A stretch of 44,186 nt of DNA, taken from contig CALYOL010000001.1 in the NCBI GenBank assembly GCA_945231345.1, positions 1-44,186 on the forward strand, read 5' to 3'. The stretch is from an uncultured Porphyromonadaceae bacterium (GTDB lineage: Bacteria; Bacteroidota; Bacteroidia; Bacteroidales; Muribaculaceae). The notes beneath the pieces are model-generated. The model searched no databases, was not told where the DNA came from, and saw only the letters and a list, made by a program, of their open reading frames with translations. Shown in pieces: positions 14,756 to 44,186 of this stretch. Both the position numbers and the translations under genes were made by a program. Each line of letters begins with the position of its first letter. The first letter of the stretch is position 1.

Positions 14756-14790
14756 TTTTAAGACTTAATTTTATCTCAAGACAAAGTAAA

Positions 14791-15222: not shown

Positions 15223-15252
15223 TTCTCACCCTAAAAGAACACATAATCTAAA

Positions 15253-16416
15253 ATGGAACAATCTTTTGGTGATTTTATAGTTTCGAACCTGACTCAGTTT
15301 TGGGAATTTACAGGCTTTTACAACGCCACATTCCCTCACTTTGTCATGCTCGCCGTAGGTCTGTTCTTCATATGGCTTGCCATAAAGAAGAACTTCGAGC
15401 CTATGCTCCTTGTGCCAATCGGCTTCGGTATCTTGATTGGCAATATTCCATTTAACACAGAAGCTGGACTTGAAATCGGTATTTACGAACAAGGTTCTGT
15501 GTTAAACATTCTCTATAACGGCGTAAGCGCAGGCTGGTATCCACCTCTTATCTTCCTTGGTATCGGTGCTATGACAGATTTCTCTGCACTTATCGCTAAT
15601 CCTAAGCTTATGCTCATCGGTGCAGCGGCACAATTTGGTATTTTCGGCGCATACATGGTAGCCCTCGCTATTGGTTTTGCACCGGACCAGGCTGGTGCTA
15701 TCGCTATCATCGGTGGTGCTGACGGTCCTACAGCTATCTTCCTTTCATCTAAGCTCGCTCCTAACCTTATGGGTGCAATCGCTGTTTCGGCTTACTCTTA
15801 CATGGCACTCGTGCCTGTAATTCAGCCACCTATCATGCGACTCCTCACCACTAAAAACGAGCGTCTCATAAAGATGAAACCTGCTCGTGCCGTTTCACAA
15901 AATGAAAAAATCATATTCCCTATCGTTGGTCTGCTTCTTACCTGTTTTGTTGTGCCTACCGGTCTTCCACTGCTCGGTATGCTCTTCTTCGGTAACCTGC
16001 TCCGCGAATGCGGCGTGACAACTCGCCTTGCGAAAACTGCAAGCAATGCCCTGACCGATATCGTGACTATCCTCCTTGGTATGACAGTAGGAGCCTCTAC
16101 ACAGGCTACTACATTCCTTACAAAGGAAACGATTTTCATTTTCTTCCTCGGCTTCATGGCATTTATCATCGCTTCTACTTCAGGTGTACTGTTTGTAAAG
16201 CTATTTAACCTATTCCTCCGCAAGGACCAGAAAATCAACCCGCTTATTGGTAATGCAGGAGTTTCTGCAGTGCCTATGTCTGCGCGTATTTCTAACAACC
16301 TCGGACTCGAATACGACCCATCCAACTATCTTTTGATGCACGCTATGGGTCCAAACGTAGCTGGTGTTATTGGTTCCGCTGTTGCTGCAGGTGTACTCCT
16401 CGGCTTCCTCGCATAA
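15253..16416 (+). CDS. mmdB: Na+-translocating decarboxylase beta subunit (OadB/MmdB family)
   Basis: 387-aa polytopic protein. [19 protein letters not shown] and [12 protein letters not shown] are conserved OadB/MmdB blocks. Confidence 0.9.
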
Positions 16417-17007: not shown

Positions 17008-18405
17008 ATGAACTACAAAACATTTCTTGCCATGTGTTTAGCAACTGCTTTGTGCTCTTGCACGAATACTGACTATCAAAAAGAATACACCAATATTATT
17101 GATGAAATTTCATCACCTCAATACTACGGTAGGAGTGATTTTGCCAATGGTGACATAAATGCAGCCAAATATATCATCGACTATATTTCAGACATTGAAG
17201 GATTAACGCCAATGGCGAGTGAATTGACTACACCAACTCCCGCATACCCTCCATACAAATCAGCAGTAAAGCCAGCGAGCGAAGGCCGGTGGAACGACAT
17301 AGACAATGCAGACAAATATCTGCCCTATCTTCAGCATTTCCAGATACCAATGAACGTAATGAGAGAAGATATGGCTGTAGAAATAGATGGCAAAGCACTA
17401 CGCCCAACATTTGACTTCACCGCAAAGGAATTTTCTCCTTCATGCCACGGTACTTACCCAATTCAGTATGTACCTGACTCAATCGTTACCCATGAACATT
17501 TCATTAACTACCTAAATAGCGGCAAACTCGCAGGCAAATTTGCCGTAATAAATATGGCAAAATACTGTACTCTCCCCGCGCACCCATTTGAGAGATATAA
17601 ACCATACCTTTGCCTAATTGATTCAACAAAAGTTGGCGGAATAATTCTAAAGAGTGACGAATTGATACCGTATTTTAAGGCTCGCTCATATTTCACCACA
17701 CCCGTTCCGGTTATTGGAGTGGACAAATCTTTTCCGGAAGATGCTCAGAATATTACTATAAACATTGACTCAAAATTTCTCCTCAATCATGACTGTCACA
17801 ACATAATCGCATACCTACCGGGCACAGATATGGGAACTGATGTCATCACTTTGATTGCTCACTACGACCACCTCGGACTTATGGGACGCGACAACATTTT
17901 CTATGGCTCTAACGACAACGCAAGTGGTACCGCCATGCTATGCGTTCTTGCCAAATATTTCAGTACACACCGCCCTAAATGCAACCTGCAATTCATTTGG
18001 CTTGATGCTGAAGAAGCTAACCTTCTTGGAGCATTTTATTACTGCCAGAACCCTACTATTCCGCTGGAGAACGTAAAACTTGTCATAAACCTTGATATGA
18101 TAGCCGATGATGGAGACCATCTCGCCACTGAATGTAGCGAAAATGGAATGTCAGAACTGGAAATCATCAAGCAAATAAACGACAACAACGACGAATACAA
18201 GCCTTTTAATATCGCGATACAGGAACTGACCGATAATAGTGACCACTATGCTTTCGACCAAGCAGGCGTACCATCAATATACTTCTCCACAGAAGGTAGT
18301 TTTCTAAAAGATTACCATTCTCCTCGCGACAGCAATTCAAACTACTCAGCCGACAATTTCAACCGACTTTTCTCTCTCATCACATCATTCATAAACATGA
18401 AGTAA
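17008..18405 (+). CDS. M28-family metallopeptidase lipoprotein
   Basis: It has a lipobox (ATALCSC). The M28 zinc-ligand blocks are AHYDHLG, NDNASGTA, WLDAEEANLLG, NLDM and SDHYAF. Confidence 0.85.
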   Translation: MNYKTFLAMCLATALCSCTNTDYQKEYTNIIDEISSPQYYGRSDFANGDINAAKYIIDYISDIEGLTPMASELTTPTPAYPPYKSAVKPASEGRWNDIDNADKYLPYLQHFQIPMNVMREDMAVEIDGKALRPTFDFTAKEFSPSCHGTYPIQYVPDSIVTHEHFINYLNSGKLAGKFAVINMAKYCTLPAHPFERYKPYLCLIDSTKVGGIILKSDELIPYFKARSYFTTPVPVIGVDKSFPEDAQNITINIDSKFLLNHDCHNIIAYLPGTDMGTDVITLIAHYDHLGLMGRDNIFYGSNDNASGTAMLCVLAKYFSTHRPKCNLQFIWLDAEEANLLGAFYYCQNPTIPLENVKLVINLDMIADDGDHLATECSENGMSELEIIKQINDNNDEYKPFNIAIQELTDNSDHYAFDQAGVPSIYFSTEGSFLKDYHSPRDSNSNYSADNFNRLFSLITSFINMK

Positions 18406-25554: not shown

Positions 25555-26973
25555 CTATTTTGCCGGAAATGACTGTTCTATATTTTGTTCACGATGTACA
25601 AGGTCTACCTGTACGCCATATTTTTTGGAGATATGCTCGGCAAGGTGTTGAGCGCAGTAAACTGACCGGTGCTGACCGCCTGTACAGCCAAAAGAAATCA
25701 TAAGCGACGTAAATCCTCGCTCTATATATCTGCTCACTGACGAATCTACAAGAGGATAGACATGGTCAAGAAACTTCAGTATCTCCCCGTCATCTTCAAG
25801 GTATTTTATCACCGGTTGGTCAAGTCCCGTAAATGGCTTATAGCGCTCATATTTACCCGGATTGTTGATTGCTCGGCAATCGAAAACATATCCCCCACCA
25901 TTCCCCGATGGGTCATTTGGAATACCTTTTTTATATGCAAAGCTAAACACCTTCACTTTCAGTGCATTTTTCTGCAAATCATCTGTAAACTGCTTCATGT
26001 TTACAAGTTGCGTCAGCAATTCTGAAAGGTAAGGATATTCGGCAAATGGTGTGGCTATTATATTCCGCAAATTTGCAAGCGCATACGGCACTGACTGCAT
26101 AAAGTGTGGCTTTTTCTCAAAATAGCCTCGGAAACCGTATGCACCGAGAACTTGCAGCGTTCTGAATAGTACAAAGTGGCGTAATTGACTATAAAACACC
26201 GCTTTATCTACTTGAATATACTTATTCAGAGCATCAATATAATGGTCTATCAGCTCATAGCGTAATGAATCCGGGAAGTTTGCTTTGGCTTGCCATAGAA
26301 ATGATGCAAGGTCATAGTAATATGGTCCTTTGCGTCCGCCCTGAAAGTCTATAAACCAGGGTTCACCATCTTTTATCATCACGTTTCGCGACTGAAAATC
26401 ACGATACATAAACGAATTGCAATCCACCTGAAGCAATGTCTTGGCAAGGGCTACAAAATCATCCTCAAGCAAATCCTCCTGAAATTCAAGCCCTGTTGCC
26501 TTCAGGAAACAATACTTAAAGTAGTTTAAGTCCCACATTATGGAACGCATGTCAAATGCCGGTGCTGGATAGCAGTGACTGTAGTCAAAGCCATCTGCTC
26601 CCTTAAACTGTATGTCCGGAAGCAAACGGATTACCTTTATAAGCAATTCTTTCTCCTCATTGCCAAATGAGCGTGTTAGCCTCCCCTTTTCTATCGCTGC
26701 AAAAAGTGACAGGTCGCCCAAGTCCTCCTGAATATAAGACATCCGGTCTTCCGACACTGCATAAAGTTCGGGGGTGGGCAGACCCTTGGCTTTGAAATGC
26801 TTTGCCATATATATAAAGGCTTCATTCTCTGCCTTACACGTCCCTACAGCACCAATTATGGATTGTTCCCCGGTGAGTCGGAAATATCGTCGGTTTGAGC
26901 CGGAGGCTGGCAATTCTGTCATCCCCTTGGGCTCTGAACCTACGAATTTTTCATATAGTTTATTTAAGTTCAT
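25555..26973 (-). CDS. Fusion protein: AmgK-like anomeric amino-sugar kinase (APH fold) plus a RapZ C-terminal-like domain
   Basis: The N-terminal ~330 aa carry GSNRRYFRL, YRDFQSRNVMI and FIDFQGG (compare AmgK HRDFHSRNL / LDFQDA). Residues ~338-462, KVFSFAYKKGIP...YVFDCRAINNP...FTGLD.PV..YL...SFGCTGGQHRSVYCAQHLA, line up with E. coli RapZ FESFGFKHGIP...YVFDVRFLPNP...MTGLDKPVAAFL...AIGCTGGKHRSVYIAEQLA. Confidence 0.7.
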   Translation of the reverse strand: MNLNKLYEKFVGSEPKGMTELPASGSNRRYFRLTGEQSIIGAVGTCKAENEAFIYMAKHFKAKGLPTPELYAVSEDRMSYIQEDLGDLSLFAAIEKGRLTRSFGNEEKELLIKVIRLLPDIQFKGADGFDYSHCYPAPAFDMRSIMWDLNYFKYCFLKATGLEFQEDLLEDDFVALAKTLLQVDCNSFMYRDFQSRNVMIKDGEPWFIDFQGGRKGPYYYDLASFLWQAKANFPDSLRYELIDHYIDALNKYIQVDKAVFYSQLRHFVLFRTLQVLGAYGFRGYFEKKPHFMQSVPYALANLRNIIATPFAEYPYLSELLTQLVNMKQFTDDLQKNALKVKVFSFAYKKGIPNDPSGNGGGYVFDCRAINNPGKYERYKPFTGLDQPVIKYLEDDGEILKFLDHVYPLVDSSVSRYIERGFTSLMISFGCTGGQHRSVYCAQHLAEHISKKYGVQVDLVHREQNIEQSFPAK

Positions 26974-29901: not shown

Positions 29902-30708
29902 TTACCAATATTTCTTGCACAATTTCTCATATCGTTCTGTGGATTTATATTCCCTGAGCCATACATTCAGGCTATCGCGCAGTGCTACATTGTCCTTCGA
30001 CAATACCCAAGATTGAAACTGGTTAAATGATATGGCTGTAGATATGTCAAGCTGAGGATATTCGGCAGCTAATGATTCTGCGTACTTCATATTCACCACC
30101 GCCTGCTTCCTCTCACCCAAGGCTGTGAGGATTATTAGCTGCTCTGCCCCGTATTTCTCGTCTTCCACAACGTATATCGTGTCGCCTATCTCCTCTGACA
30201 GATTATGGAGGCGTTCCACCGCAAGCGAACCCTTTGGCACCCAAATGGTGTCTCCCGCAAGGTCGTTTTGTGTAAAACCCTTTTCTATAGTTCCCTTTAG
30301 CCGTACAAGCACCTGATAGTCAATGTATATTGAGTCTGTATAGAGATATTTCTCCTTCATTTTCGTTGTCACCGGTATATCTGCTATCACCACATCAAAA
30401 AGGCTCTCATCAAGCTGGCGCAAGGCGGAATTTAGGTTCGTAAATGCGGAGATTTTCACCGGGCGACAATGTTCTGAGCATATTTCTCTGATTAGTTCAT
30501 AATGAAACCCACACAGCGTATCCTCTCGCATCGATAGTGCTATTGGCGAAAGTTCTATCGCAACATTTAGAGTATCTCCATCCGCTCGTCCAATTGCATT
30601 TGACCTCGGCGACGAACATTCTCTCAGACCCCACATCGCCGCCAGCACTATTATCAGCAACACGATGTATATCGCAATTCTACCTGTCTTTAATACCTTC
30701 TTTTCCAT
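29902..30708 (-). CDS. Membrane-anchored solute-binding-protein-like (SBP_bac_3/MltF N-domain-like) protein
   Basis: An N-terminal TM anchor (IAIYIVLLIIVLAAMWGL) is followed by a type-2 periplasmic binding fold pattern (LNVAIE...GFHYELI...FDVVIADIPVT...YLYTDSIY...). There is no transglycosylase domain. Confidence 0.6.
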   Translation of the reverse strand: MEKKVLKTGRIAIYIVLLIIVLAAMWGLRECSSPRSNAIGRADGDTLNVAIELSPIALSMREDTLCGFHYELIREICSEHCRPVKISAFTNLNSALRQLDESLFDVVIADIPVTTKMKEKYLYTDSIYIDYQVLVRLKGTIEKGFTQNDLAGDTIWVPKGSLAVERLHNLSEEIGDTIYVVEDEKYGAEQLIILTALGERKQAVVNMKYAESLAAEYPQLDISTAISFNQFQSWVLSKDNVALRDSLNVWLREYKSTERYEKLCKKYW

Positions 30709-30726
30709 CCCGTTTTTCTCTGCATT

Positions 30727-32688
30727 TTAGTTCGCAAAATCAATCGTCAAGCCAAGCAAAAAGCGACGCGGATTTAGAGGATAATGCGGCATAGAGAAAT
30801 AATTATCCTCTGTCATTCCCTGATTGACGTGCGACATCATGACGTAAAAGCGTACCTTGCTCAACTTCATGTTTACGTATGCGTTCATGTAGGGAAATCC
30901 ACCACACTCCACCTCGTCTTGATTATAAAAAGTCATAGTTGCCGGCTGATAGGCAACGCTCTTATACTTTGTGTAATACGAACAATCAATACCTAATTGT
31001 ACATCAAGCACCCTCGCCACCTTAAACGTCAGATAGGCATTGCTGTATATCGAAAGCTTTGGCAGAGGTATCACACCCTCTTCCGTCGATGTCTGATACG
31101 TTATTTCATTATCCCAGTTCAATGCGCGATATCCAAGATGCTGGCTCAGTGTTGCATTAAACACTTGTACACTACCACTATGCTGAACCGGCTTACATGT
31201 TTTGTCAAAGTAGATATAGTTTTGTACATTTTCCACTCCGATATTTAGCCGGGTATTTGTGTATGGCACCGTCAAGATTCCACCCACGCGAACCTTGCGT
31301 ATCTTTGAAAAGTCATTTTTCCAAATAAAATGATTTGAAACATAGTTATTATAAAGATATGGCGGTGCTACGTTTTCAAACTTCCCATACGCTGTCAGTC
31401 CTACTGTGTCACCTAACAATGGAAAGCGCGTATTGATTTTTCCGTCTATCTTTACCTCCCCGGATGCCGGACCTACAAGTCCTATCTCTCCTTTGACATC
31501 ATAAGTTAGATAAGTACCTTGCTGCTTGGTCAGTTGAGCGCCTACCCACATCAGGTTTTGCTTTTCCTTTGCCTTGATATCAGGAAATGGATTCGGTGTC
31601 AGTCCCGCTGCTTGCTCTGTGCCTGTCACCGTGTCCGGAGCCTGTGTATAGCTGCGAATTTGATGCGTCACATACGCCGCAAGTCCTGCCTTCGCATACT
31701 TGTTAAAACCCTCAAGAAGAGAAATACCTACAGTATTTGTCAATGCCCAATATTGTGTACGGTCATCCGTCCCATTTGGATTTATATATTGGTTTTCCCA
31801 AAATTCCTTACCCTCAGACAGGTTATCATTCTTGAAAATATGCTTACTCGCATCATACTTCATAGTCCATATAAAACTGGATACTGGTACGTAGGTCTTC
31901 ACCACCGTTGTATCGTCTAAATGCTCCTCCTTGTAAAATCCAACCTTATACCTGTGATTCATAAGAAATTTCTGTGCCACGATTTTTGAGTGCGCCTTTG
32001 AAAGATTTGTAGGTATTGTCTTGAAATCAACCTTTGTACTACCACCCTGTATTTCAGCCGGGTCTGTTATATACAAGTCATCTTCAATACCACCATTTTC
32101 CTTGTTCAAAAAATTATAGTGATTAAAATACCCCTGAAACTCATATCTGTCACCTATGTAAGAGCCATTAAATCCCCAACTAAGGTCTTTGTCTGCCTGA
32201 TAGTTATAGCTGCCCTTTGAATATAGATAATCAAGCATTGCTCCCACCTGGGCATTTTTGTTTATATTTCCGGAAAATGTTCCCGAAAGCCTGTCCTGTC
32301 CATTATCTCGGCTTCCTCCCGTATTATAAGACAAAAGCGTCATAGGTATACGAGTATTATAAAACACCTGCTCATAAAAATTTGGCATCCAAGCACTTAA
32401 CGCATCTTGAAAAAAGAAGTCTGATGTTGGCTTGCGGTCAAAATACTTCAAATTAAGTCCTTCGGCTCCCAAGTTTCCTGTTGTAGCGTATGCTGGATAA
32501 GCCATCGCTGCCACAGACCGTAGATGATAGTTTTGAAAAAGAGTATCTATCGTAGACTCCTCCCTCAGTCCCAATGGCTCATTTATGCTCCACGCATAAG
32601 ACGGTAGCACAGGCTCTGGCTTCTCAGCATATACATAACACACTGATAAACCAATTATTATAGATAATATTATCGACTTTATTCTCAT
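30727..32688 (-). CDS. Putative outer-membrane porin (Bacteroidota 'putative porin' PF14121-like beta-barrel)
   Basis: 653 aa with a signal peptide (IIIGLSVCYVYA). It is Tyr/Asn/Gly-rich with alternating amphipathic strands throughout. The family call comes from general resemblance, not a diagnostic motif. Confidence 0.6.
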   Translation of the reverse strand: MRIKSIILSIIIGLSVCYVYAEKPEPVLPSYAWSINEPLGLREESTIDTLFQNYHLRSVAAMAYPAYATTGNLGAEGLNLKYFDRKPTSDFFFQDALSAWMPNFYEQVFYNTRIPMTLLSYNTGGSRDNGQDRLSGTFSGNINKNAQVGAMLDYLYSKGSYNYQADKDLSWGFNGSYIGDRYEFQGYFNHYNFLNKENGGIEDDLYITDPAEIQGGSTKVDFKTIPTNLSKAHSKIVAQKFLMNHRYKVGFYKEEHLDDTTVVKTYVPVSSFIWTMKYDASKHIFKNDNLSEGKEFWENQYINPNGTDDRTQYWALTNTVGISLLEGFNKYAKAGLAAYVTHQIRSYTQAPDTVTGTEQAAGLTPNPFPDIKAKEKQNLMWVGAQLTKQQGTYLTYDVKGEIGLVGPASGEVKIDGKINTRFPLLGDTVGLTAYGKFENVAPPYLYNNYVSNHFIWKNDFSKIRKVRVGGILTVPYTNTRLNIGVENVQNYIYFDKTCKPVQHSGSVQVFNATLSQHLGYRALNWDNEITYQTSTEEGVIPLPKLSIYSNAYLTFKVARVLDVQLGIDCSYYTKYKSVAYQPATMTFYNQDEVECGGFPYMNAYVNMKLSKVRFYVMMSHVNQGMTEDNYFSMPHYPLNPRRFLLGLTIDFAN

Positions 32689-32959: not shown

Positions 32960-32994
32960 GAAAAAATAGAGACGCGACTATTAATCGCGCCTCT
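32960..32994 (-). terminator. Rho-independent terminator closing the 33-44 kb minus-strand operon
   Basis: On the minus strand, agaggcgcga/tcgcgtctct forms a 10-bp stem (one mismatch) with a 7-nt loop, followed by ATTTTTT. Confidence 0.7.
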
Positions 32995-33060
32995 AAAAGT
33001 AAATCTCAGAAAAATGTAGGGTATACGCTATATTGATACACCCTCTTTGGTGTCAATTAT

Positions 33061-33171: not shown

Positions 33172-33621
33172 TTATAAATCCGTCTCCAAGTCATATTTCT
33201 TCAATTCGCCACGAATAAAAATGCGTGTATATGAGCGAGGGTCGTTTGAATACACCGTTACGGATTTGCGAAATCTGCCAACCGGTTGTCCATACCCTTT
33301 ATAGTTCACGGTGACTATTCCGGAATCACCCGGCTCTATAGGCGTTTTGGGGTATTGCGGTCGAGTGCAGCCGCAGCCGGTTGCGACGTGTAGGATTACC
33401 AGCGGCTGCTGTCCTGTGTTGTAAAAGCGGAAAGAGTGCGACTTTAATGTGTCGTTCCCTACCGGTTCAAAACTGCCAAAATCATATTCTTGCTCTTTGA
33501 ATTCAATCTTGGGATTTTGCGGTGTGTGGTTTTGTATTGAATCGGGAATATTTATCTTCACTCCTTGTGCAGAGGCAAGGAGTGAGGATAAAAACAGTAT
33601 TATATGTGCAGCGGGTTTCAT
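33172..33621 (-). CDS. DUF1573 domain protein (exported, Ig/ASH-like fold)
   Basis: It has a signal peptide (ILFLSSLLASAQG). F.F.N.G..PL.I..V...CGCT.P.....PI.PG..G.I.V.Y is the DUF1573 signature, including CGCT. Confidence 0.8.
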   Translation of the reverse strand: MKPAAHIILFLSSLLASAQGVKINIPDSIQNHTPQNPKIEFKEQEYDFGSFEPVGNDTLKSHSFRFYNTGQQPLVILHVATGCGCTRPQYPKTPIEPGDSGIVTVNYKGYGQPVGRFRKSVTVYSNDPRSYTRIFIRGELKKYDLETDL

Positions 33622-33632: not shown

Positions 33633-36002
33633 TTATAAATCTTGTGATATAGCAGTTCCCACAATGTATGGACCGCCTTTACGCTCGGAGGGATAATATA
33701 AATTGATATATTTTGAGCGAGCAAAATATTTCTTTTCGCCATCGTATTTGCAATAAGGTTTAGCGGTTACAGATAAGGCATCAATGCCGGTGTTGGGAGA
33801 CTTAGGTCTGTGTTCGGAAATAAACGTCGTGATAATGGTGTATTTACCGGCACGGCATAGTCCGTCAAACGGTATAGAGTATTCTTTTTCAAGGATAACT
33901 TTACCATCAGGAGCTTCCAATCGGAATTCCATTCCCCATTCTTTAATACGGGTAGCGTTTTTGAGTTCCACAACTGTTGTGAAGGCATATTCGGTGAAGT
34001 CTTCACGTTTTTTCCCTTTGAAAGCTTCTTCACCGTATTCTTCGAGATAATATTCCCAAACCTCTACGGAAAGTTCTCTGCCAAACCATTGATAGCACTT
34101 GGGCTGTGAAATTATGGGAGTTCCGGGTGTAACAATCATTGAATTATTTCGATATTCAGTGGTCATTCCCGAGCCTTTATCATAGATACACGGCACAACT
34201 TCATAAACGCCTACAGTTTCACTCAGTCCTGCTTTTTTGAGATTAACGGAAAATTTATATGTTTTGTCGGCAGCCAGCTCTTCGTCTATTACCTCTTGCT
34301 TGAATTTGCCGCTTCCACTTGCGATTTCACCCTCGTAGATACGCAATGCGGGACGCTGATTCATTTTATCAATCTTAGGGAAAATGAAGAAAGTTTCAAG
34401 TTTGTCAAAATTCAAAGATGTGTTAATCGCCAATTCGTCTCGAGTGCCAATCATCGGAGTTCCAGTCCAAGGGTCGATAAGCGGATTGCCGTTTTCGTCT
34501 TCCAAGACATATTCCACTTCCTCGGTAGTCAATTTTGACTTAGTTTCTTTATCATTTATTTCCGCCTTCATATTAATCATTGCCGATACCTCCTTGGTGT
34601 TGAAGTTTAAGTCGCCGAGGCTCACAGCCAAAGGTCCCAGTTTCAGCAAGCCTTCGGCAAAGCCACTGTAATTGGCATATAAACCAGCGTTGAAATTCTG
34701 ACGGTCGATAATAGTATAGTCGTTGAGCGATTCGGTTTCCAAAGATGCTTTAAAACCCACCTTACCTTCGATGCCTATGACACCGCCAACACCGCCTAAT
34801 TCACTTCCCACCAAAACACCGACACCAATCCTGCCACGAAGCCAAAAATCGGCACTGCCTCCAAATTGGATATTGGTAACATCGGAAAATGGTGGTTTCT
34901 CGGGATTATACACCAATTTATTGTCGATTTCACTCTTTTCTCCTTTATTAATAATACATCCGTTTCTGAGGGTTTCCGACCGATATTTCATTTCGGCAAC
35001 ACCATAACCCAATATGGTATATCCCACAGAAACATCCACTCTAAACATCACACCGGCTGGAAAAGAAGGGATGCTGAGAACGGGATTGATAGACTTAACA
35101 CTTTTAGTAATTCTCATTAAATCTTTGACAGCCTTTAGAGAATTCATCATACCTCTGATATCCCCGACATTTTTGGGAAAACTTGCAAGAGATTTAGATG
35201 CTTCTTCAGGATTATTACCATAGCCTATGAGCATCTTAATATTTCTTTCGGTATAAGTGTCGTTCCATTCTTCTTTATATTCTTTTACGAGGTCTTTATC
35301 TTCATGAACTTTAACCACCTCTGTAGATTCATAAGTAAGGTCAACATATATTACTTTCTTGTTGGGGAGGTCAAAAGACTTGTTAAACTGAAATCTTGTC
35401 TTGTCCTCATGTACGCCATCGGCGCGTGCACCGGGCTCATATAGCGACATATCGACAAAAACGGAGTCGTTTTTCCAAAACCCGGGGCGATTGATTGAAG
35501 GGGTGGACCGTGATTCTTCTGTACTGTCTTCAACAAAATCGGACACTCCGGGCACTATATAGTTGAAGTCGAGACGCATCTTCAATATTTTGAACACGTT
35601 TTCTTCATCGGTAGGTTCATGCTCGACACGAATCATTCCGGCGTCGCGGGTAACGGAACGCACTTTTGAACAAATTCCGAGAGGAATTGTCTTGGAACAA
35701 TTCGCAGCGATGTAATGTCCTTCTTTCGGCACCCATTTATCCGGGAGATTATCCATAAACCAGATGACGGAATCGTTCATCATGGCAATATAGTTTTGCG
35801 GCTCTCCATTAAGGGCAGTTACATCGTCGTGGTATTGGTATGTAAATTCGCCATATTCACTCACTTCGGTGTAAGGTTCTTCTTTGCCTTTATCTTCTTC
35901 CGTTACTACATATTCCTCCATGCTCAATTCGCATGACGACAACAGTAACGCTGACAAAAGAAGACCATTTCTAACTATCTTATTCATTATATATTTTTGC
36001 AT
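33633..36002 (-). CDS. Large lipoprotein of unknown function (789 aa) with a Gly-rich amphipathic block
   Basis: It has a lipobox (LLLSSC, Cys24) followed by acidic residues (ELSMEEY). I recognise no domain. A Gly/Val/Ile-rich segment, GGSADFWLRGRIGVGVLVGSELGGVGGVIGIEGKVGFKASLETE, lies at nt 34740-34862. The start could be 36002 or 35987. Confidence 0.75.
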   Translation of the reverse strand: MQKYIMNKIVRNGLLLSALLLSSCELSMEEYVVTEEDKGKEEPYTEVSEYGEFTYQYHDDVTALNGEPQNYIAMMNDSVIWFMDNLPDKWVPKEGHYIAANCSKTIPLGICSKVRSVTRDAGMIRVEHEPTDEENVFKILKMRLDFNYIVPGVSDFVEDSTEESRSTPSINRPGFWKNDSVFVDMSLYEPGARADGVHEDKTRFQFNKSFDLPNKKVIYVDLTYESTEVVKVHEDKDLVKEYKEEWNDTYTERNIKMLIGYGNNPEEASKSLASFPKNVGDIRGMMNSLKAVKDLMRITKSVKSINPVLSIPSFPAGVMFRVDVSVGYTILGYGVAEMKYRSETLRNGCIINKGEKSEIDNKLVYNPEKPPFSDVTNIQFGGSADFWLRGRIGVGVLVGSELGGVGGVIGIEGKVGFKASLETESLNDYTIIDRQNFNAGLYANYSGFAEGLLKLGPLAVSLGDLNFNTKEVSAMINMKAEINDKETKSKLTTEEVEYVLEDENGNPLIDPWTGTPMIGTRDELAINTSLNFDKLETFFIFPKIDKMNQRPALRIYEGEIASGSGKFKQEVIDEELAADKTYKFSVNLKKAGLSETVGVYEVVPCIYDKGSGMTTEYRNNSMIVTPGTPIISQPKCYQWFGRELSVEVWEYYLEEYGEEAFKGKKREDFTEYAFTTVVELKNATRIKEWGMEFRLEAPDGKVILEKEYSIPFDGLCRAGKYTIITTFISEHRPKSPNTGIDALSVTAKPYCKYDGEKKYFARSKYINLYYPSERKGGPYIVGTAISQDL

Positions 36003-36018: not shown

Positions 36019-36726
36019 TTAATGACTTGTTAATTCAATCGGGGCAGAAGGACTTCCATGGGTTTCCCCGTCGAAGTCTAAATAAACGGGCAATTTTTTG
36101 AGCATAAGATTCTCTTTATCGTAAATGGCAAAACGCACAAGTTCAGGGCGTGTGGGCTCAAGGTCGTCCCATTCAAGATGACCGTAAATACGCATTTGTA
36201 TAACTTCTTTGTCTTTTAATTCAATAGGTTTGCCTATTCCTCGAAGTTCAGAACCCACAAATGCAACCACCTTCTGCTTTTCAAAATCCACGGGCACACC
36301 ATCGATTGTTGCCGAGAGATATGCCACCATATCGTTGGAAAACATGTGGATGTTGATTTCCCACGGTGCTAACACGAAAACATGACAGAATGCCATCATT
36401 TCATTCATCACCGAAGTTGCGCTGACAATGGTTTCGCCCTGGCTCTCCGCAATAATAGTGTCGTTCTTGATGTATGCGATTTCTTCGTTTGACGACCGAA
36501 AGAAGACTTCGCGATTGCTCACCGTATCGGGAGTAAACACGGGATGGAGCACAAAAGAATCTCCCTGCGTTACAAATACCGTATCGCGGTCTAATTGCAT
36601 GTCATAAGCCATTTGAACATTATCGTCAAATTCCATGTCAATGAGTCCGCACGACGCAAGTAGCGAAGCCATTAGGAGGAGGCAGGATAATGGAGATAAG
36701 TATGTGAGTCTCTTTTTCACAGTCAT
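36019..36726 (-). CDS. Lipoprotein with an N-terminal Big_2-like Ig domain and an unknown C-terminal beta domain (235 aa)
   Basis: It has a lipobox (LLASC, Cys26) followed by GLIDMEFDD. VFVTQGDSFVLHPVFTPDTVSNREVFFRSSNEEIAYIKNDTIIAESQGETIVSATS fits the Big_2 pattern. Confidence 0.75.
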   Translation of the reverse strand: MTVKKRLTYLSPLSCLLLMASLLASCGLIDMEFDDNVQMAYDMQLDRDTVFVTQGDSFVLHPVFTPDTVSNREVFFRSSNEEIAYIKNDTIIAESQGETIVSATSVMNEMMAFCHVFVLAPWEINIHMFSNDMVAYLSATIDGVPVDFEKQKVVAFVGSELRGIGKPIELKDKEVIQMRIYGHLEWDDLEPTRPELVRFAIYDKENLMLKKLPVYLDFDGETHGSPSAPIELTSH

Positions 36727-36777: not shown

Positions 36778-39144
36778 TTATTTAGTTTTTTCTTTAGGGG
36801 CTGTTACAACGACAGTATTTGAATTGGTTGTGGCACGTCCGTCTTTATATCTGATTCTGACATAATACTCTGCCGTTTCGCCTGCCGAAAGGAGATTGTC
36901 TTGGAATGTCAGAGCATCGGAGCTGACAGACATTAAGAATTTATGACGTCTGTCTTTTGGTCCTTTTCTGTAAACACAGAAATACCACTCGCCTTTGTAT
37001 GGAAGATTTTTGTCTGTTTCCCACACAATTTTTGTTTTCTTGTTTTTTTCGTCATAAACGCCAATCAACTTGATTTTCCAATCAAAAACGCGCTCGCCTT
37101 CGAAACGAGTTGAATAGACCAAACTTAGCCCGCTTGAAATTCCTGCAAAAGTGAACGATTCCATAGCATATTCGTAGCGGGTGCGGCGTGCGTATTCCGG
37201 GACATCGATTACGTTGAGCAAATTGCCGGCTTGGCGAAGTGAATCGGCATCATAAGTGCCAATCGTGGTCCATTCTTTAGTGTTGGCAATGCGCCGCATC
37301 AACACATGGTGTGATATTTGCTGCTCGTTGCTGCACACCCATCTCATATATATCCCGCGTACTTGGTCGACCCATAGGGAGTCGATGTGTGGAGCGTCGG
37401 GCTTAATCATGCTTGGGCGAATCACTTGCAGCGGAGCAGTGTATTCACCTTCGTTTGAAGCGAAGTCCACAGCACGCACCTTGTAATAGATGTATTTCTG
37501 GTTTACATCTACCGCAAGCGTATCGATAAATGTTGTGTCTCTCAACAAAGAGCCCGAATGCATTGAGCGCAACATGAATTCGTGAGTAGTGTCGTTGGCA
37601 AAAGCCAGTTCATAATAGTCAACGTCGGCAGATGGGGCATCCCATGATAATTTTACCGCACCGGCTTGGTTGTCAACTATTTCATAGCGGAAATTAGTAG
37701 GTGCTTCGGGCGCCTTTAAGTCTGAGATACGCAAAATATGCGTCATTGAATAACTTACATTTTGAATCGAGTCGTAAGCCGCTACCGCAACCTGGCTTGT
37801 GCTGATTTTTGACACATTAACCGTGCAAATGGTGTCGTTAACGGGAATCAAATCAGGAGTCAATTCCACCCATTCCGCTTTGTTATCATCGCTTGAGCGT
37901 TGATAGTAAAGAATTTTGTAGCCGATGAAGTCAGGCTCAATAGTGTCTTTAGAGAAATGGAAGTCGGCATATACATCTTTAGAAAGGTCGTCGGGATTTC
38001 GTCGGTCGATAACAATCGCCTTCAACAGGGGTGGACGAGGAGCCTCCAAGTCGGGCATTGAGGCAACATGATAGTTTTTAGCCGCAATCAAGTCGCCATA
38101 AGTGTCATATCCCGAGATGCGGTATTCATAAGTGCCGGGGCGCACATTGTCGTTGATGAAATTGTCTAATCCCTCGTCATGAATATCCCGCATCATGATG
38201 AAAGGATTGTCGTTGACCTTAGTCCAATTCTTTTCACCCATAGCACGGCGGTGGATGTCGAACGATGAGAATCGCTCGGTCCTTTCCCACCAGATACGCA
38301 ACTGGTTGATACCCACAACAGAGTCTCCCATAACTGCTTCGTAAGGCTCGGGAACGTAGGGCTTATTCTCTATTTCATCGATATATCCCACACGGAATAT
38401 CAAATTCTTGGTAGAGTCAAACTCTGCCGGTCTGACAATGTAGCGATATTTAGCCTTCTTTTTAACATTTCTGTCAACGAAACGCATCGCCAACATTTCG
38501 GCTATATCCTTACGCCACTCGCTTGCCAATACAGCCATACCGAACCTGAATTGCTGGTCGTTATAGACATCGAGCAACGCCCCCATTTCGCCTGTTCCGT
38601 ATCGCGATTGGTCTTGGGTAAAACCGCCCTCGCTGTAGAGAGTGCCTAAGGCAATGGCAGCCACGGAATCTGTTTCAGGATAAATTGCTCTAAACCGCTC
38701 TAAGGTTGCCGGTTTCAGATGCATGGCAAGTGTGTCGATACGTATTGCATCATTCTGTTTTTTGCCATCGGGCAACGATATGCGATAGATGTTTACCCCC
38801 ACGGCGTTAAGATATTGCCAACTCACATAGTCTTCCGGAGCCCAACGGAGCACAATGCTGTCGCCGTATGAGCGGGCGAGAAGATGGATTCTGCTGTCGT
38901 AATTGCGATGCGTAGCATCCTTGCGGAAAAATTCGGCTGTATCGCGCACTTCTCCGGGCAGATAATTGAGCGTAGTGTCGGGCTTCCATACATATATGGT
39001 ATCTTCGGCACTTACTTCCTCCAAATCCTCGGGGTCGATAGGAACCGAGAGGTTATTGTCGGGAGTAACACCTTTTTGCGATGCGGCAGAAGCCACCAAA
39101 ATGCTCGCTATAAAAAAGAATAATATATTTCTGCTTTTTTTCAT
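36778..39144 (-). CDS. Exported multi-FN3-like repeat protein (788 aa)
   Basis: It has a signal peptide (ILFFFIASILVASAAS). About six modules each show an FN3-style W...Y.Y/Y.V pattern, several introduced by D(L/A)xAPxxP linkers, for example DLKAPEAPTNFRYEIVDNQAGAVKLSWDAPSADVDYYELAF...YYKVRAVDFASNEGEYT. Confidence 0.75.
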   Translation of the reverse strand: MKKSRNILFFFIASILVASAASQKGVTPDNNLSVPIDPEDLEEVSAEDTIYVWKPDTTLNYLPGEVRDTAEFFRKDATHRNYDSRIHLLARSYGDSIVLRWAPEDYVSWQYLNAVGVNIYRISLPDGKKQNDAIRIDTLAMHLKPATLERFRAIYPETDSVAAIALGTLYSEGGFTQDQSRYGTGEMGALLDVYNDQQFRFGMAVLASEWRKDIAEMLAMRFVDRNVKKKAKYRYIVRPAEFDSTKNLIFRVGYIDEIENKPYVPEPYEAVMGDSVVGINQLRIWWERTERFSSFDIHRRAMGEKNWTKVNDNPFIMMRDIHDEGLDNFINDNVRPGTYEYRISGYDTYGDLIAAKNYHVASMPDLEAPRPPLLKAIVIDRRNPDDLSKDVYADFHFSKDTIEPDFIGYKILYYQRSSDDNKAEWVELTPDLIPVNDTICTVNVSKISTSQVAVAAYDSIQNVSYSMTHILRISDLKAPEAPTNFRYEIVDNQAGAVKLSWDAPSADVDYYELAFANDTTHEFMLRSMHSGSLLRDTTFIDTLAVDVNQKYIYYKVRAVDFASNEGEYTAPLQVIRPSMIKPDAPHIDSLWVDQVRGIYMRWVCSNEQQISHHVLMRRIANTKEWTTIGTYDADSLRQAGNLLNVIDVPEYARRTRYEYAMESFTFAGISSGLSLVYSTRFEGERVFDWKIKLIGVYDEKNKKTKIVWETDKNLPYKGEWYFCVYRKGPKDRRHKFLMSVSSDALTFQDNLLSAGETAEYYVRIRYKDGRATTNSNTVVVTAPKEKTK

Positions 39145-39163: not shown

Positions 39164-42100
39164 CTAATAATTATTATAAAACCAGTTGTTTACATTCTTG
39201 CATGAGAACAATCTAGACGGGTTGTTAATCGTGTAAACATAACGAGACCAACGCGGACCCATATTCAAGTATGCCCTATTGGAAACGGTGTATTCCGCTT
39301 TCTTGAAGTTGTAGGCATTCACGCGGAACGATGTAACATTTATTTTTGTGATATTGTTCCAGCGTGGGATAAAGTCAAGGTAAGGGCCACGAGTGCCTTT
39401 GGTGTAACGCCCATTCTTGTCAACCCCCGTGATTACTTGATTATAATTTATTTCAACAATATTGTGTCGATTGTTGCCCACAAGACCCAACAAAATATCC
39501 TCGCTTCGTTCTTCCTGAGGACGAGTGTAATCTTTGGGTATATTGTCGAAACTCGACCACATCGTAGTCTTCCCGCGAGTAGCGGCGTTGTTGAATGGAG
39601 AGCCCCAAAGAATTCCCAATTGATAATACGGCACCTCTATGCGAACATTAGAATTTAGTCGGGAGGTGGCAGTAATGTACACACCGGCATTAGCATTCAT
39701 CAACTGTTCCACGGCGTTTGCTGCAGAGGAGTAGAATTCACCTTTTCCGTAACTCAAAATTTGTTGTAACTCACAACGGAATTTGGAGTCAAATTCATCG
39801 ACAGCGGAATAAACGGCATAAAGGTCCAAAATAAGATTTATTGCACGAGAGTCATCGTCTTTACCTGACGTAAATAACTTGTATGCACGTTCTCGTCCGC
39901 CGAATGCGTAGTTGTATTTTGCATCAGTCATTTGCGGGAGAGGGAACTGACAATCGTTATTCCACTGGGATTGATCATAAATAGACATTGCTTTCACCTT
40001 TTCGTAGTCGGCCATAGAGCCGTAACTTGTCTTGTAGGCGCCCTCGTAAACGCCTCCGCGGTCGTAATAGATGAGCGACTGAGCCGTGGTGGCATTTACC
40101 GCCAGACGTTTGTTTGTAAGATTCCAACCGCCAACAAGTCCGTAGTTACTCATATAAGTAATATAGGTGTACGGGTCTTGATAACGCATCGGATTTACTC
40201 CTTCATCAGTCATATATTTCTTATAGAATGAGAGACCGCGAGCATTGCCTTTCCAAGCGGAGGTTTTCATGGTGACACTGTTTAAGCGAATGCCAACGAA
40301 AGGCTTCTCGTAGTCAACCTGCTTACCCTTGTTATAGCCGCAATGGTAATACCCGTCTTTCGACTCCAGCAACAAATTGACTATATTGGTTGTGTCGGCG
40401 ACTATCACTGTAGATACCCTCCTTACGGATTTCTGTTGCCTTGGGTCCCATACAAAGGTTACTTTCGATTCGGAGCGCGAAACCACATAGTTGAGTTGCA
40501 GACGATAGTCGGAGTTATTATATACTTTAGCGTCAAACTCGCCACCTTTGACGGTCATATTGCAAGTGCTGTCGGTTACAACCCAATATGCGTCTTTTTC
40601 TTCGACTAATTGCCAACCTCTATTTCTATCCATATATCTTTCCAACTTCCAGCGCAATTTGCCTTTCTTGAAAGTTTTGCCTGAAATGTCGCTCAGGAAT
40701 GCGATGTTTGGAGACTTAATATCCGCACTGTAGGCAGGGATGTATTTGTCGTGCTTAAGTTGGTTGTAATTCGACGGATATGCGATAGCCACATACTGTT
40801 GCAAATCTTCCGGATTGTCGTCCAACTCCTGTTTCGGACCGGTGCAGAAGTAATACACCTTTGTCTGCTCCCATTTCACATTTTCATATTTTTTCTTGGT
40901 TTCGTTCCACTTAAGAGGGTCAACTTCTTGTCCGTTTTCTATTTCTTTCGCCCAGCCGACAAACACCATGCGATAGAACTTGTTAGGATTGAGTTCAGTC
41001 ATATTTATTTGATGGTTGAAGCGCGATGTGCCTTTGATTTTAAATCCGATGCAACGGTCGTAGTTTTTCAGATTATTTGTCGCTTTGCTGTATTCATAAA
41101 GTAATACCGTGGTGTTCATATCAAATACGAATGTGCGACTTGCTTGTGCTTTGAGTTTTTCTTTGTCGCCATTGAAATCTTTAGCCAATCGATTCAATTC
41201 GGTTTCGTCGAGCACACGGAAGTGTTCCTTGATAGGGGCTTCGGTGTTGATGTATGGCGTAATGAAAAACTTTGGATTGATTGCATTTTCTTTTTTCCAT
41301 CCATTGGCCTTAATAGTATCTCCCATAGAGCACTCACCAAAGAGTTTGAAATTGTCAAGGGCGTTGCCGTAGAAAAGATCGCAACGGTCGCCACATTCAA
41401 ATTCAAACTTTCTGTTAATCTTGACAAGACCTGCCAGCAAATTCAATTTCACACGAGCCTCACCGGTAAAGTAGGTTGGATTGGGAAGTCCCATTCTAAA
41501 CACACCACCAATTCCGGCATCTACGATGTCAAACTTTTTGTCCCAGAATCCGAGGTTGACATGTATTCCAAACTTGGCATATATGTAGGCATACAACTGT
41601 CCTTCGGCATACCAGCCTTTGTAGCCGGGTGTGCGAGGAATATTCATACACGGTGTGTTACCCATATTGCGAACACACACATCAAATCCTGCCAATACAC
41701 CCATGTCTCCATAGAACAATCCGAGGTTGAAGTCGAGGTAACCCCAAGCGGAAGCACCCATCATAACTCCTCCATTGACTTGCGCCTGGAAATCTTTGAG
41801 AGCGGCAGTGCGGGCATTGTTAGCCTTGCTAATGTCGGCACTTTCCACACCGCTTCCCTTTGTGGAACCATCGAGGAACTGACGAATCTTGCTCGGAATG
41901 GGCGGCAACTCACCGTTGCCCGGCAATTCGTTACCTACACAAAGATATGCGTTGGCACCGATGTTTACACTCACAATCTTGGATTTGAAATCCACTAACA
42001 CGAATTTGCATCGCAAGTCTTCGTCGGGCTGTCCCAGATAGAGATGCCATTTCACTTTGTCGAGTTTCTTCCCTTTCTCCTTCATCGTGATGCGGAAGTC

Positions 42101-44186
42101 CAGGGCGACAGACCCTTTGCCCACCGTTGGTTTCTCGGGGGTTTTAGCATTGGTTTCTTCATCGGCTTTTGATTCCGACTGGTCGTCGAATGCCGCTTCC
42201 AATCCTCCTTTTGCGTTGCTTACAGGTTTCTCCATTTTTGGGTTGAGCTTGCCCTGCAGGTAAGCCAACTCTGAAGACAAAGCAGTCATTTTTTCGCTCA
42301 CTCCGCCTATGCCATCGGCTTTGGCATCTACAGTGATGTTGAGTGCAAAGTATTTGTCGTTTGTGTCCTCTTGATAAACGATAGTGGCTTTGGATTTAAT
42401 CAAATCATTCACGGCACTCAGGCGGCCTGTAAGCATAAACGTGGTGAGTCGTTTGGTCTCCTTGTTATAAACAACTGTCATTTCAAAATTGCCGTCCATC
42501 AAGCCTTCTCCGGCAGATGAACAAAGTCCCATTCCTGCCACCACTCCAATGACGCCTTTTTGAGGCTCGGCTTCTGTTTCCGATTTGCGAACGCAGTTGA
42601 AATAGAATCCGGCAGAGATACTTGTGATAGCAACAGGTGGAATTTCAATGCCGTAGGAACTGCCTAACGAAGCATAAAAATAGCCCCACTTGTAGTCTTT
42701 GAGTTGGTAATATCCACCCGTTGCTTCAGCGGTGAAGAGGTCGCCGGGCATGGTGAAAGAGAGCGTTCCCTTGTAGCCTTTTCCATATTTGGCGTCATCA
42801 CTTGCTCTCAACGTGCCACTCAACTTCATTCCGGCAAAAGAAGAATTAAACGACGCTTCATCAAACTTGGTACTTTCGTACTTAAAGGCGATTTTGGAGA
42901 AATCAAAGTTCTTGGCTACGTTAGTCACACCGCTCAATTTAGCACTGATTGTAATCCCGGCATCGGCACTGATGGCAAGACCGTCGATGAATTTTACGCC
43001 GCCTTTTACCGACATTGTCAACAACTCGTTTTTGAAGTCGAAGTCGTATTTTTCAATAGAAAATTCAAACGGACCAAGTTTCTTTGCCATTGAAGCCAAC
43101 GACCACTCTCCGGTGCTGAAATAGAATTGGTTCTTGATGTTAAATTCCTTCCCTTTGTAGAGCGTCGTAATCTTTTTCTTAGTGTCGGTCGCGGTTTGCA
43201 ATTCTTTGATATCTTCAAACTGCGATTTCCATACCGGACAGTTGGCAAGACGCATTTTTGAGAAATGGATATCCGGCAGTTCAAATGGAAGCGGCAAATT
43301 CTTCATCTTGCTCTTCATCGCTTCGCCGCCGATGCTGAGGTCGCCGGTCAAGAGCAATTCTACGCGGGTTTTCAATTCTTCCTTTTCGGGAACCGCCTCA
43401 ACGAGCATATAACTTAACTGCTTGTCAAATTCGGCGGTTGCAAGCAGGAAGTCCAGTTTTAATTTGTCCACTTGCTGCACTTTGAAAACGTAGGCATAGT
43501 TTCCTGCCTTACTGTTCTTCAAGTTGTTTATTTTAAGGATTTGGCAAGCATAACCTAACTTTCCGTCAAGCAGCGGAACATCAAACTTTCCACTGAATCC
43601 ACATTCATTGAAGTCGTTTTGGATAAATGTGGCGTGCACCTTGTCCAGCGAGAATGCCCAGCCACCGGCTTTACCGGTTTTGGCAGAAAGGATGTCGTCG
43701 GCCTCGATTTCGAGAGTAACGCCGGAATCGTCGAAGAACATATTTTTTGTGGCAATCTTAAGACGTTTGTCGCCCGAAGTGCCAAATTCCAACGATTTGG
43801 GCATTTTCACGCTTATTTCTTTGATATAAAGTCCCTGCCATGTGTTTATCTGTCCGGCAATCAGGGTCCTTGATTTGTCGTACTTGTTAGGGAATTTCCC
43901 CATTTGTTCCGAATTGCGAAAAATAGAGTGGTCATACACTATATTTTGTGCGGTGAATGTCCAGCCCGGGAGGTCTTCCGCTTGGAATGGGTCGATGGAC
44001 ACATTATCCACCATCCAGTCTTCCCAATCTCCGATGCTTGTCTTGATGTTTAACACCGGACATTCTGCTTGTGCCACTCCATTGATGTCTTTCTTCAATC
44101 CCGGGATTTTCATATCCACATCTACACCCAGAAGTTCAAACTTATCGGCATGCCATGAAACATAGCAACCATCTTTTGGGTTAATC
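39164..44186 (-). CDS. Giant protein of unknown function, 5'-truncated by the window edge (at least 1673 aa visible)
   Basis: A single uninterrupted ORF. The track starts it at GTG 44119, but the same frame has no stop from 44120 to 44186 (...INPKDGCYVSWHADKFELLGVDV-DMKIPG...) and no signal peptide follows 44119. The true start is therefore probably outside the window. I found no recognisable catalytic or nucleotide-binding motifs. Confidence 0.8.
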   Translation of the reverse strand, partial: INPKDGCYVSWHADKFELLGVDVDMKIPGLKKDINGVAQAECPVLNIKTSIGDWEDWMVDNVSIDPFQAEDLPGWTFTAQNIVYDHSIFRNSEQMGKFPNKYDKSRTLIAGQINTWQGLYIKEISVKMPKSLEFGTSGDKRLKIATKNMFFDDSGVTLEIEADDILSAKTGKAGGWAFSLDKVHATFIQNDFNECGFSGKFDVPLLDGKLGYACQILKINNLKNSKAGNYAYVFKVQQVDKLKLDFLLATAEFDKQLSYMLVEAVPEKEELKTRVELLLTGDLSIGGEAMKSKMKNLPLPFELPDIHFSKMRLANCPVWKSQFEDIKELQTATDTKKKITTLYKGKEFNIKNQFYFSTGEWSLASMAKKLGPFEFSIEKYDFDFKNELLTMSVKGGVKFIDGLAISADAGITISAKLSGVTNVAKNFDFSKIAFKYESTKFDEASFNSSFAGMKLSGTLRASDDAKYGKGYKGTLSFTMPGDLFTAEATGGYYQLKDYKWGYFYASLGSSYGIEIPPVAITSISAGFYFNCVRKSETEAEPQKGVIGVVAGMGLCSSAGEGLMDGNFEMTVVYNKETKRLTTFMLTGRLSAVNDLIKSKATIVYQEDTNDKYFALNITVDAKADGIGGVSEKMTALSSELAYLQGKLNPKMEKPVSNAKGGLEAAFDDQSESKADEETNAKTPEKPTVGKGSVALDFRITMKEKGKKLDKVKWHLYLGQPDEDLRCKFVLVDFKSKIVSVNIGANAYLCVGNELPGNGELPPIPSKIRQFLDGSTKGSGVESADISKANNARTAALKDFQAQVNGGVMMGASAWGYLDFNLGLFYGDMGVLAGFDVCVRNMGNTPCMNIPRTPGYKGWYAEGQLYAYIYAKFGIHVNLGFWDKKFDIVDAGIGGVFRMGLPNPTYFTGEARVKLNLLAGLVKINRKFEFECGDRCDLFYGNALDNFKLFGECSMGDTIKANGWKKENAINPKFFITPYINTEAPIKEHFRVLDETELNRLAKDFNGDKEKLKAQASRTFVFDMNTTVLLYEYSKATNNLKNYDRCIGFKIKGTSRFNHQINMTELNPNKFYRMVFVGWAKEIENGQEVDPLKWNETKKKYENVKWEQTKVYYFCTGPKQELDDNPEDLQQYVAIAYPSNYNQLKHDKYIPAYSADIKSPNIAFLSDISGKTFKKGKLRWKLERYMDRNRGWQLVEEKDAYWVVTDSTCNMTVKGGEFDAKVYNNSDYRLQLNYVVSRSESKVTFVWDPRQQKSVRRVSTVIVADTTNIVNLLLESKDGYYHCGYNKGKQVDYEKPFVGIRLNSVTMKTSAWKGNARGLSFYKKYMTDEGVNPMRYQDPYTYITYMSNYGLVGGWNLTNKRLAVNATTAQSLIYYDRGGVYEGAYKTSYGSMADYEKVKAMSIYDQSQWNNDCQFPLPQMTDAKYNYAFGGRERAYKLFTSGKDDDSRAINLILDLYAVYSAVDEFDSKFRCELQQILSYGKGEFYSSAANAVEQLMNANAGVYITATSRLNSNVRIEVPYYQLGILWGSPFNNAATRGKTTMWSSFDNIPKDYTRPQEERSEDILLGLVGNNRHNIVEINYNQVITGVDKNGRYTKGTRGPYLDFIPRWNNITKINVTSFRVNAYNFKKAEYTVSNRAYLNMGPRWSRYVYTINNPSRLFSCKNVNNWFYNNY

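Follow-up and report, generated by a model that had tools for sequence, protein, structure and literature searches.

The locus described here raises a simple question: where does a giant gene that runs off the edge of the analysed DNA begin, and what does its product do? The window, that is the whole stretch of 44,186 nucleotides (nt) analysed (contig CALYOL010000001.1 of assembly GCA_945231345.1, from an uncultured Porphyromonadaceae bacterium placed in the Muribaculaceae), ends within a long minus-strand open reading frame (ORF), whose product we refer to as the giant. Translation of the minus strand over window:39164-44185 gave 1,673 sense codons and then a single stop at 39164-39166; the last complete codon at the window edge is 44185-44183, and the initial 32 residues read INPKDGCYVSWHADKFELLGVDVDMKIPGLKK. 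The chance that a random frame stays open for 1,673 codons is ~1e-35. A first-pass annotation had read the frame without a stop over 44120-44186, and retranslation returned the same letters, with no in-frame stop from 44119 to the window edge. The residues 5' of the listed GTG start at 44119, in the frame of the giant, are INPKDGCYVSWHADKFELLGVDV. Counted together with the GTG codon itself, 21 of these 23 residues are identical to the closest homologue, P0001, and the stretch includes the near-invariant G, C and W of the family. As judged from this conservation, the codons upstream of GTG 44119 are coding sequence.

P0001 is 2,437 amino acids (aa) long, in agreement with the earlier claim that the protein exceeds 1651 aa, and is 96.5% identical to the 1,673 residues of the window without insertions or deletions (window residue i is P0001 residue i+764). 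The contig that encodes it, L001, has 96.6% nucleotide identity to the reverse complement of the window, again without insertions or deletions. In L001 the ORF runs 2,291 nt further upstream, to an ATG at L001 8057, which adds the 764 codons missing from the window; this ATG and the stop codon of gene B, which lies upstream, overlap in the sequence TAATG. P0001 begins with MRSYMNINRIFAILTVWLATCFNAFT followed by QEV, a typical signal peptide. The family consensus likewise has a hydrophobic leader with A-Q at its end, and the leader is therefore of the type I signal peptide class rather than a lipobox or a transmembrane anchor. A Gln after the cleavage site is a habit of Bacteroidota signal peptidase I substrates and fits the A-Q leader. 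The export signal expected in the unseen N-terminus is accordingly found in P0001 and in the family consensus. Two metagenome scans for upstream DNA of the same strain gave 0 matches, and the extension of the giant therefore rests on homologues. Taken together, these comparisons identify the ORF as part of one gene of ~2,437 codons, of which it makes up the 3' two thirds; the product of this gene is predicted to begin with a cleavable Sec signal peptide.

The '39164..44119 GTG' entry was made by a mechanical ORF rule, which took the first ATG, GTG or TTG past the edge, and it therefore carries no evidence of a start. The first-pass view that this GTG is internal agrees with 113 full-length homologues (~2,300-2,900 aa) that are collinear through the position, and with more than 100 homologues that reach ~764 residues further, to a signal peptide. 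Both GTG 44119 and ATG 44113 fall within a conserved predicted beta-strand (P0001 residues 779-790, model 2 described below), and neither is followed by a signal peptide, while every operon partner is exported, with a signal peptide or a lipobox. Against an open frame and conserved upstream codons as well, the alternative that GTG 44119 or ATG 44113 is the true start of a protein of ~1,650 aa, which is backed by the mechanical ORF list alone, is refuted for practical purposes, and the annotated 1,651-aa product should be regarded as a fragment.

Among 5.8 billion proteins searched, 224 relatives of the giant were recovered, with full-length members of 2,300-2,900 aa. HMMER, run exhaustively over 1.84 billion cluster representatives, identified 1,772 relatives at E<=1e-3, ranging from 1,350 to 5,511 aa. 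Conservation spans the whole length, apart from two linkers in which it is weak, and evolution is faster in the last ~450 residues; among distant relatives the most widely conserved stretch is approximately window residues 700-960. The members with a named source belong to Prevotella, Bacteroidaceae, Muribaculaceae, Saprospiraceae, Fulvivirga, Chitinophaga, Flavobacterium and others. These sources are all Bacteroidota except three contigs of metagenome-assembled genomes (MAGs) labelled Oscillospiraceae, Lachnospiraceae or 'bacterium'. Nearly all relatives are annotated 'hypothetical', the exceptions being one BspA-family leucine-rich repeat (LRR) protein and one TANFOR protein. When one genome per GTDB species was scanned, at least 325 loci were found to encode a relative, including those of the cultured Hallella seregens ATCC 51272 (L065) and Prevotella sp. 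885. Some genomes hold two or three copies. In one Prevotella MAG we observed three cassettes, two in tandem on contig JAZQOH010000044.1 (L028 and L033) and a further one (L037).

In many relatives the entire body is retained and is extended at the C-terminus by 400-2,200 variable residues, LRR arrays among them. No toxin was recognised in the C-terminal extensions of the longer relatives, where LRR modules alone were identifiable. Long C-terminal tails of low complexity, rich in Ser and Thr, were seen in P0079, P0085, P0086 and P0139, and may be glycosylated surface linkers. In P0124 and P0212 the C-terminal ~60 residues resemble, by eye, the C-terminal domains of ribosomal protein L7/L12.

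The single TANFOR annotation led to a known protein class. TANFOR-domain proteins (TIGR02542) have been proposed as a polymorphic-toxin class of Bacteroidetes; they are large, mostly bear a Sec signal and carry polymorphic C-terminal toxins (nucleases and others), their neighbourhoods are enriched in SprB, Fn3, PKD and type IX secretion system (T9SS) C-terminal domain (CTD) families, and the route by which they are exported is not known (Jana, Salomon and Bosis 2020, PMC7073777). A search with the Fulvivirga relative of the giant retrieved a protein named 'TANFOR domain-containing' by the Joint Genome Institute (JGI). This protein, P0447, and one further relative, P0444, match TIGR02542 at their N-termini (E 7.5e-9 and 1.2e-6, both below the curated cut-off), and P0001 is collinear with P0447/P0444 by BLASTP in the blocks 505-1008 and 1472-1795 (E 2e-32 and 5e-28). 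The N-terminus of P0001 matches a further relative, P0455, at E 3e-25. By hhalign, the profile of the N-terminal domain aligned with TANFOR regions at a probability of 87% (E 3.7e-6), with an LPEGxY motif in common. Among 60 family N-termini, five matched TIGR02542 (best 1.4e-5, all under the 67-bit cut-off), and no other family recurred. In addition, the genes flanking the TANFOR-annotated P0447 are homologues of B and D, the immediate neighbours of the giant (hhalign 100%, E 1e-49 and 3e-50).

The giant and the TANFOR proteins have in common a giant size and a Sec signal within the Bacteroidota, a collinearly homologous body of ~2,300 residues, and neighbours that include Fn3 and T9SS-CTD proteins; the N-terminal domain may be remotely similar as well. 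They differ in that the family of the giant scores below the TANFOR model cut-off, in that the giant of the window has a conserved C-terminus with neither a C-terminal toxin nor an immunity gene, and in that the partners B, E and F are not described in the published class (PMC7073777). Because of the collinear body similarity, the N-terminal hhalign match and the homologous flanking genes, we conclude from these alignments that the giant is homologous to TANFOR-type giants of other Bacteroidota, as a remote and previously unrecognised relative. No toxin domain was found in the giant by Pfam or NCBIfam, and the genes downstream are the conserved D, E and F, with no immunity gene among them. For want of a C-terminal module, toxin domain or immunity gene, the giant is not filed as a polymorphic toxin; we place it instead in the TANFOR-type family, as a divergent member that consists of the body only. 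Prevotella, Hallella and Muribaculaceae are all absent from the 339 TANFOR proteins published for the class (PMC7073777). In an unlabelled fragment of the published data, the columns of which had to be inferred, Hallella seregens is apparently scored T9SS-positive with zero TANFOR proteins (PMC7073777); our genome scan nevertheless found a homologue of the giant there (the L065 locus). The literature library that was searched held no paper on the TANFOR class later than PMC7073777.

The layout of the giant was read from alignments and from two AlphaFold models. Model 1 covers window residues 701-1673, with a predicted local distance difference test (pLDDT) of 81 and a predicted template-modelling score (pTM) of 0.73, and model 2 covers P0001 residues 590-1789 (pLDDT 70, pTM 0.43). 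It opens with two N-terminal parts that lie beyond the window, first a divergent and putatively TANFOR-like domain and then a second region. As predicted by the models, they are followed by a hairpin meander of ~1,000 residues, by sandwiches of the FN3/Ig-like type and by an alpha/beta C-terminal domain. In model 1 the order is long hairpins, confident beta-sandwich domains and the alpha/beta domain; in model 2 the meander is almost unbroken, with ~50 strands of 10-20 residues each between P0001 ~685 and 1700, and the strands are amphipathic, with a hydrophobic and a polar face. The most widely conserved core consists of long hairpins rich in Gly and aromatics, with the motifs GNELPxxGxLP and WYGxGQLYA. 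Neither HExxH nor YD motifs were present in the giant, and hhalign found no internal repeats among seven segments of it. The C-terminal domain contains no recognised toxin or T9SS sorting domain (Pfam, NCBIfam, comparison of C-termini).

Foldseek searches of model 2 against the PDB gave SlpA/SDBC of Deinococcus as the best matches (E 6.5e-6, probability 0.89), followed by LptD (E 1.6e-4 and above), ushers and ApoB100. The template-modelling (TM) scores were 0.10-0.15 with a root-mean-square deviation (rmsd) above 36 A, which amounts to a class-level likeness of hairpin meanders only. Model 1 matched cytokine-receptor FN3 pairs and pilins locally, and TonB-dependent receptors, BamA and autotransporter barrels weakly. 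Neither model against the PDB, nor model 1 against viral structures, yielded a superposable structure (TM <=0.15).

The first-pass annotation had placed the protein among giant envelope or surface proteins unlike SprA/Sov, TamB and alpha-2-macroglobulin, and our searches agree. No Pfam or NCBIfam model matched and no thioester was found, and the best 50 Foldseek matches contained none of the three, bar a negligible match of model 1 to complement C5 (E 0.037, probability 0.06). More generally, no match above threshold came out of Pfam, NCBIfam and PHROGs scans of the fragment, full-length homologues or distant relatives, and PDB sequence searches with the fragment and with the full-length family profile gave nothing meaningful. 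SprA/Sov was rejected on the lack of a Pfam or NCBIfam match and of any SprA chain in the best 50 Foldseek matches of either model. A TamB/AsmA-like protein was rejected on the lack of an AsmA/DUF490 match, the cleavable signal peptide at the N-terminus and the lack of TamB in Foldseek, and alpha-2-macroglobulin on the lack of an A2M/MG domain match and of the C[GLA]EQ motif. We also rejected the giant as T9SS cargo, since no Por_Secre_tail or TIGR04183/04131 match was found; the C-termini of 21 relatives showed no CTD-like ending.

The meander segment P0001 ~1131-1300 showed a recurrent likeness to DUF6603 (PF20248), a family of unknown function. Sixteen of 58 family members matched it at E<=0.01 (best 2.6e-8), and five database relatives carry a precomputed match, whereas the best scores (25-26 bits) stay under the gathering cut-off of 27 and just positions ~2-150 of 502, the first third of the model, are covered. 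No literature was found on DUF6603/PF20248 or on giant Bacteroidota proteins.

The giant gene, C, lies in a conserved cassette. Upstream of it in L001 are A (959 aa) and B (571 aa), and downstream in the window are D, E, F and the accessory G (Table 1). By tblastn and clustering of 83 fetched loci, A-B-C-D-E was present in 70-77, F in 49-60 and G in ~21, showing that the order A-B-C-D-E-F, with G sometimes added, is conserved, while the flanks of the cassette differ from species to species. Synteny was kept in about 70 of 80 species loci, and D was found in 71-73 of the loci fetched. Of all members, B is conserved best (54-82% identity). It has a signal peptide and a composition dominated by Ser, Asn, Thr, Gly and Tyr, and it ends in a ...YxF motif of the outer-membrane protein (OMP) type (...LNYSYRF-COOH in Fulvivirga); from composition and C-terminal motif only, it would resemble an outer-membrane barrel. 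B had no match in Pfam, NCBIfam or the PDB, including a PDB search with a B profile, and B-family members are all named 'hypothetical'. Comparison with the Porin_10 protein encoded nearby revealed no relation to B, and none was found between D (788 aa) and F (789 aa), so that both pairings were rejected. The T9SS sorting domain Por_Secre_tail was matched by 13 of 35 A-family C-termini. A and E fall in one BLASTP cluster (L001 3368-6247; window 36019-36726), which indicates at the sequence level that they share a domain, probably Ig-like and repeated in A. In Fulvivirga, B- and D-like genes stand beside a gene for a SprB+CTD protein, with B not adjacent to the giant, and neighbours in Fulvivirga and in L085 carry SprB+CTD and PKD.

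A regulator containing tetratricopeptide repeats (TPR) adjoins the cassette in three distant loci (L001 252-3065, minus strand; L002 26961-27596; L084 6041-7375). In L001 its architecture is TPR, HisKA, HATPase, REC and an AraC-type helix-turn-helix; it is not conserved across most loci.

What, then, might the cassette do? Our preferred reading, held with moderate confidence, is that the giant is a body-only, surface-directed scaffold. We infer its function and export route as follows. After Sec export, B would assist in bringing the giant to the outer membrane or through it or, within the same proposal, would probably help to anchor it there; together with D, E, F and a T9SS-delivered A the giant would then form a surface-associated complex. 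The conserved body of 2,400 residues probably serves the class as a carrier or as a scaffold for display, on which relatives would hang variable C-terminal modules, LRR arrays here and toxins in the published TANFOR set. Since the window copy comes with neither a toxin nor an immunity gene, its most likely role is in contact or adhesion, or in carrying a separately encoded partner, and not that of a toxin.

Several points weigh against this reading. Localisation, export and function are derived from sequence and models, and the global confidence of model 2 is low. The TANFOR domain lies outside the window and is undetectable in P0001 by hmmscan (no TIGR02542 match at E<=1), all TIGR02542 matches in the family being sub-cut-off. 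The giant has no T9SS sorting domain, and no relation between B and a known transporter was detected. Finally, the family shows no toxin domain and its C-terminus is conserved, not swapped, so that the defining property of a polymorphic toxin is absent.

Two other readings of the same evidence are each unlikely in our view. In one, the giant would itself be embedded in the outer membrane as an integral protein, with the ~50 strands of the meander closing into one or two very large beta-barrels in the manner of SprA, LptD or SlpA; it would serve as a channel or anchor, plugged or capped by the lipoproteins E and F, and B would contribute an accessory barrel. The long run of amphipathic antiparallel hairpins speaks for it, as do the top matches of model 2 (the largest single-chain barrels and amphipathic belts), the weak barrel matches of model 1 and the two lipoproteins in the operon. 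However, these matches are limited to the hairpin-meander pattern, there is no family-level signal to SlpA, LptD, SprA/Sov or ApoB100, and SprA is missing from the best 50 matches. The pTM of model 2 is low, the giant lacks a C-terminal beta-signal, and soluble-looking domains flank the meander (~680 residues before it and ~740 after it). The long C-terminal modules of relatives, LRR arrays among them, would suit an exported passenger better.

The other reading, equally doubtful, makes B and the giant a Bacteroidota-specific, T9SS-independent analogue of two-partner secretion (TPS) or contact-dependent inhibition (CDI), with B as exporter and the giant as exoprotein. As in CdiB-CdiA, an outer-membrane-type protein of ~570 aa is encoded directly upstream of a giant exported protein, here with translational coupling, and relatives of the giant carry variable C-terminal modules. 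B is the best-conserved cassette member and accompanies the giant even in Fulvivirga and in the TANFOR-annotated locus, and the published class carries polymorphic toxins. Sequence and domain searches, however, found no Omp85, POTRA or ShlB signature and no PDB relative for B, and no TPS domain or beta-helix repeats in the giant, which is a beta-meander; the resemblance to CdiB-CdiA is organisational only. The barrel nature of B is read from composition and C-terminal motif alone, and B is not adjacent to the giant in Fulvivirga. That the cassette is a structural module of a prophage or mobile element, with tail- or fibre-like proteins, is very improbable: weak PHROG matches (for D, with the FN3 region of tail fibre J; for E, with Ig-domain tail proteins) and unconserved flanks are set against the lack of PHROG matches for the giant, A, B and F, viral-structure Foldseek matches confined to FN3/Ig modules, a Sec or lipoprotein signal on every product, and a window flank of housekeeping genes with no phage genes nearby.

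Table 1. Features of the giant gene and of the cassette downstream of it (window coordinates)
Feature	Coordinates	Strand	Remarks
Giant gene C, C-terminal 1,673 codons and stop	39164..44186	-	Full protein ~2,437 aa; translation and P0001/L001 alignment
Predicted beta-hairpin meander, window part (P0001 ~765-1700)	41378..44185	-	Model 2 secondary structure, strand amphipathicity
DUF6603-like segment, sub-threshold (P0001 ~1131-1300)	42578..43087	-	Resembles first ~150 positions of the Pfam model
Linker within meander, helical/disordered (P0001 ~1394-1450)	42128..42298	-	Poor conservation; pLDDT <50 in model 2
Core conserved most widely in the superfamily (P0001 ~1465-1725)	41303..42085	-	Distant relatives, invariant columns, locus-scan patterns
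Predicted beta-sandwich (FN3/Ig-like) domains after meander (P0001 ~1700-2150)	40028..41377	-	High confidence; model 1 pLDDT mostly >85
Predicted C-terminal alpha/beta domain	39167..40027	-	Fastest-evolving, yet alignable family-wide
Gene D, 788-aa signal-peptide protein with central FN3 domains	36778..39144	-	Starts 19 nt past the stop of the giant
Gene E, 235-aa lipoprotein (LASC lipobox), Ig-like/Big_2-type domain	36019..36726	-	Lipobox, domain and loci comparison
Gene F, 789-aa lipoprotein (LSSC lipobox), fast-evolving, no known domain	33633..36002	-	Pfam and NCBIfam scans
Gene G, 149-aa DUF1573 Ig-like protein, accessory	33172..33621	-	In about a quarter of cassettes
Terminator-like hairpin, 13-bp stem then T run	32967..32995	-	~180 nt past gene G

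The hairpin past gene G is the probable end of the operon. Downstream of it, at 29902-32688 (minus strand), are genes for the Porin_10 protein (653 aa, E 3e-185) and an MltF-like SBP_bac_3 protein; this pair is separated from the cassette by a 483-nt spacer and lies outside the conserved cassette (0 of 83 loci). The remainder of the window is housekeeping (valyl- and aspartyl-tRNA synthetases, Ffh, methylmalonyl-CoA decarboxylase). At 12301-16416 (plus strand) are the genes of the Na+-translocating methylmalonyl-CoA decarboxylase, for the alpha subunit, an oadG-like gamma domain and the beta subunit, which belong to the propionate pathway. A 465-aa ORF at 17008-18405 (plus strand) has no NCBIfam match. 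A 472-aa ORF at 25555-26973 (minus strand) combines an AmgK-like N-acetylmuramic acid/N-acetylglucosamine kinase region (25-324) with a RapZ-like C-terminal region (326-462), and by its sequence looks like an unusual fusion.

In summary, our results place the giant in a known but poorly understood class, as a variant that had not been recognised before, with a central hairpin meander of ~1,000 residues that has no solved structural counterpart. Host-associated Bacteroidales carry the giant body in Prevotella, Muribaculaceae and Hallella, where the published TANFOR screen found none. The conserved partner genes make the mechanism by which TANFOR proteins are delivered testable, the OMP-like partner, the FN3 protein and the lipoproteins being candidate export or anchoring machinery. 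We speculate further, as a possibility that we consider improbable, that B and the giant form an undescribed outer-membrane export or display route of the Bacteroidota, CdiB/CdiA-like in function but different in its folds (B as a non-Omp85 barrel, the giant as a carrier with a ~50-strand meander), and that this route is the TANFOR delivery mechanism. If this were true, the cassettes of gut and rumen Prevotellaceae and Muribaculaceae would be a toxin-less contact or adhesion version of the TANFOR delivery route.

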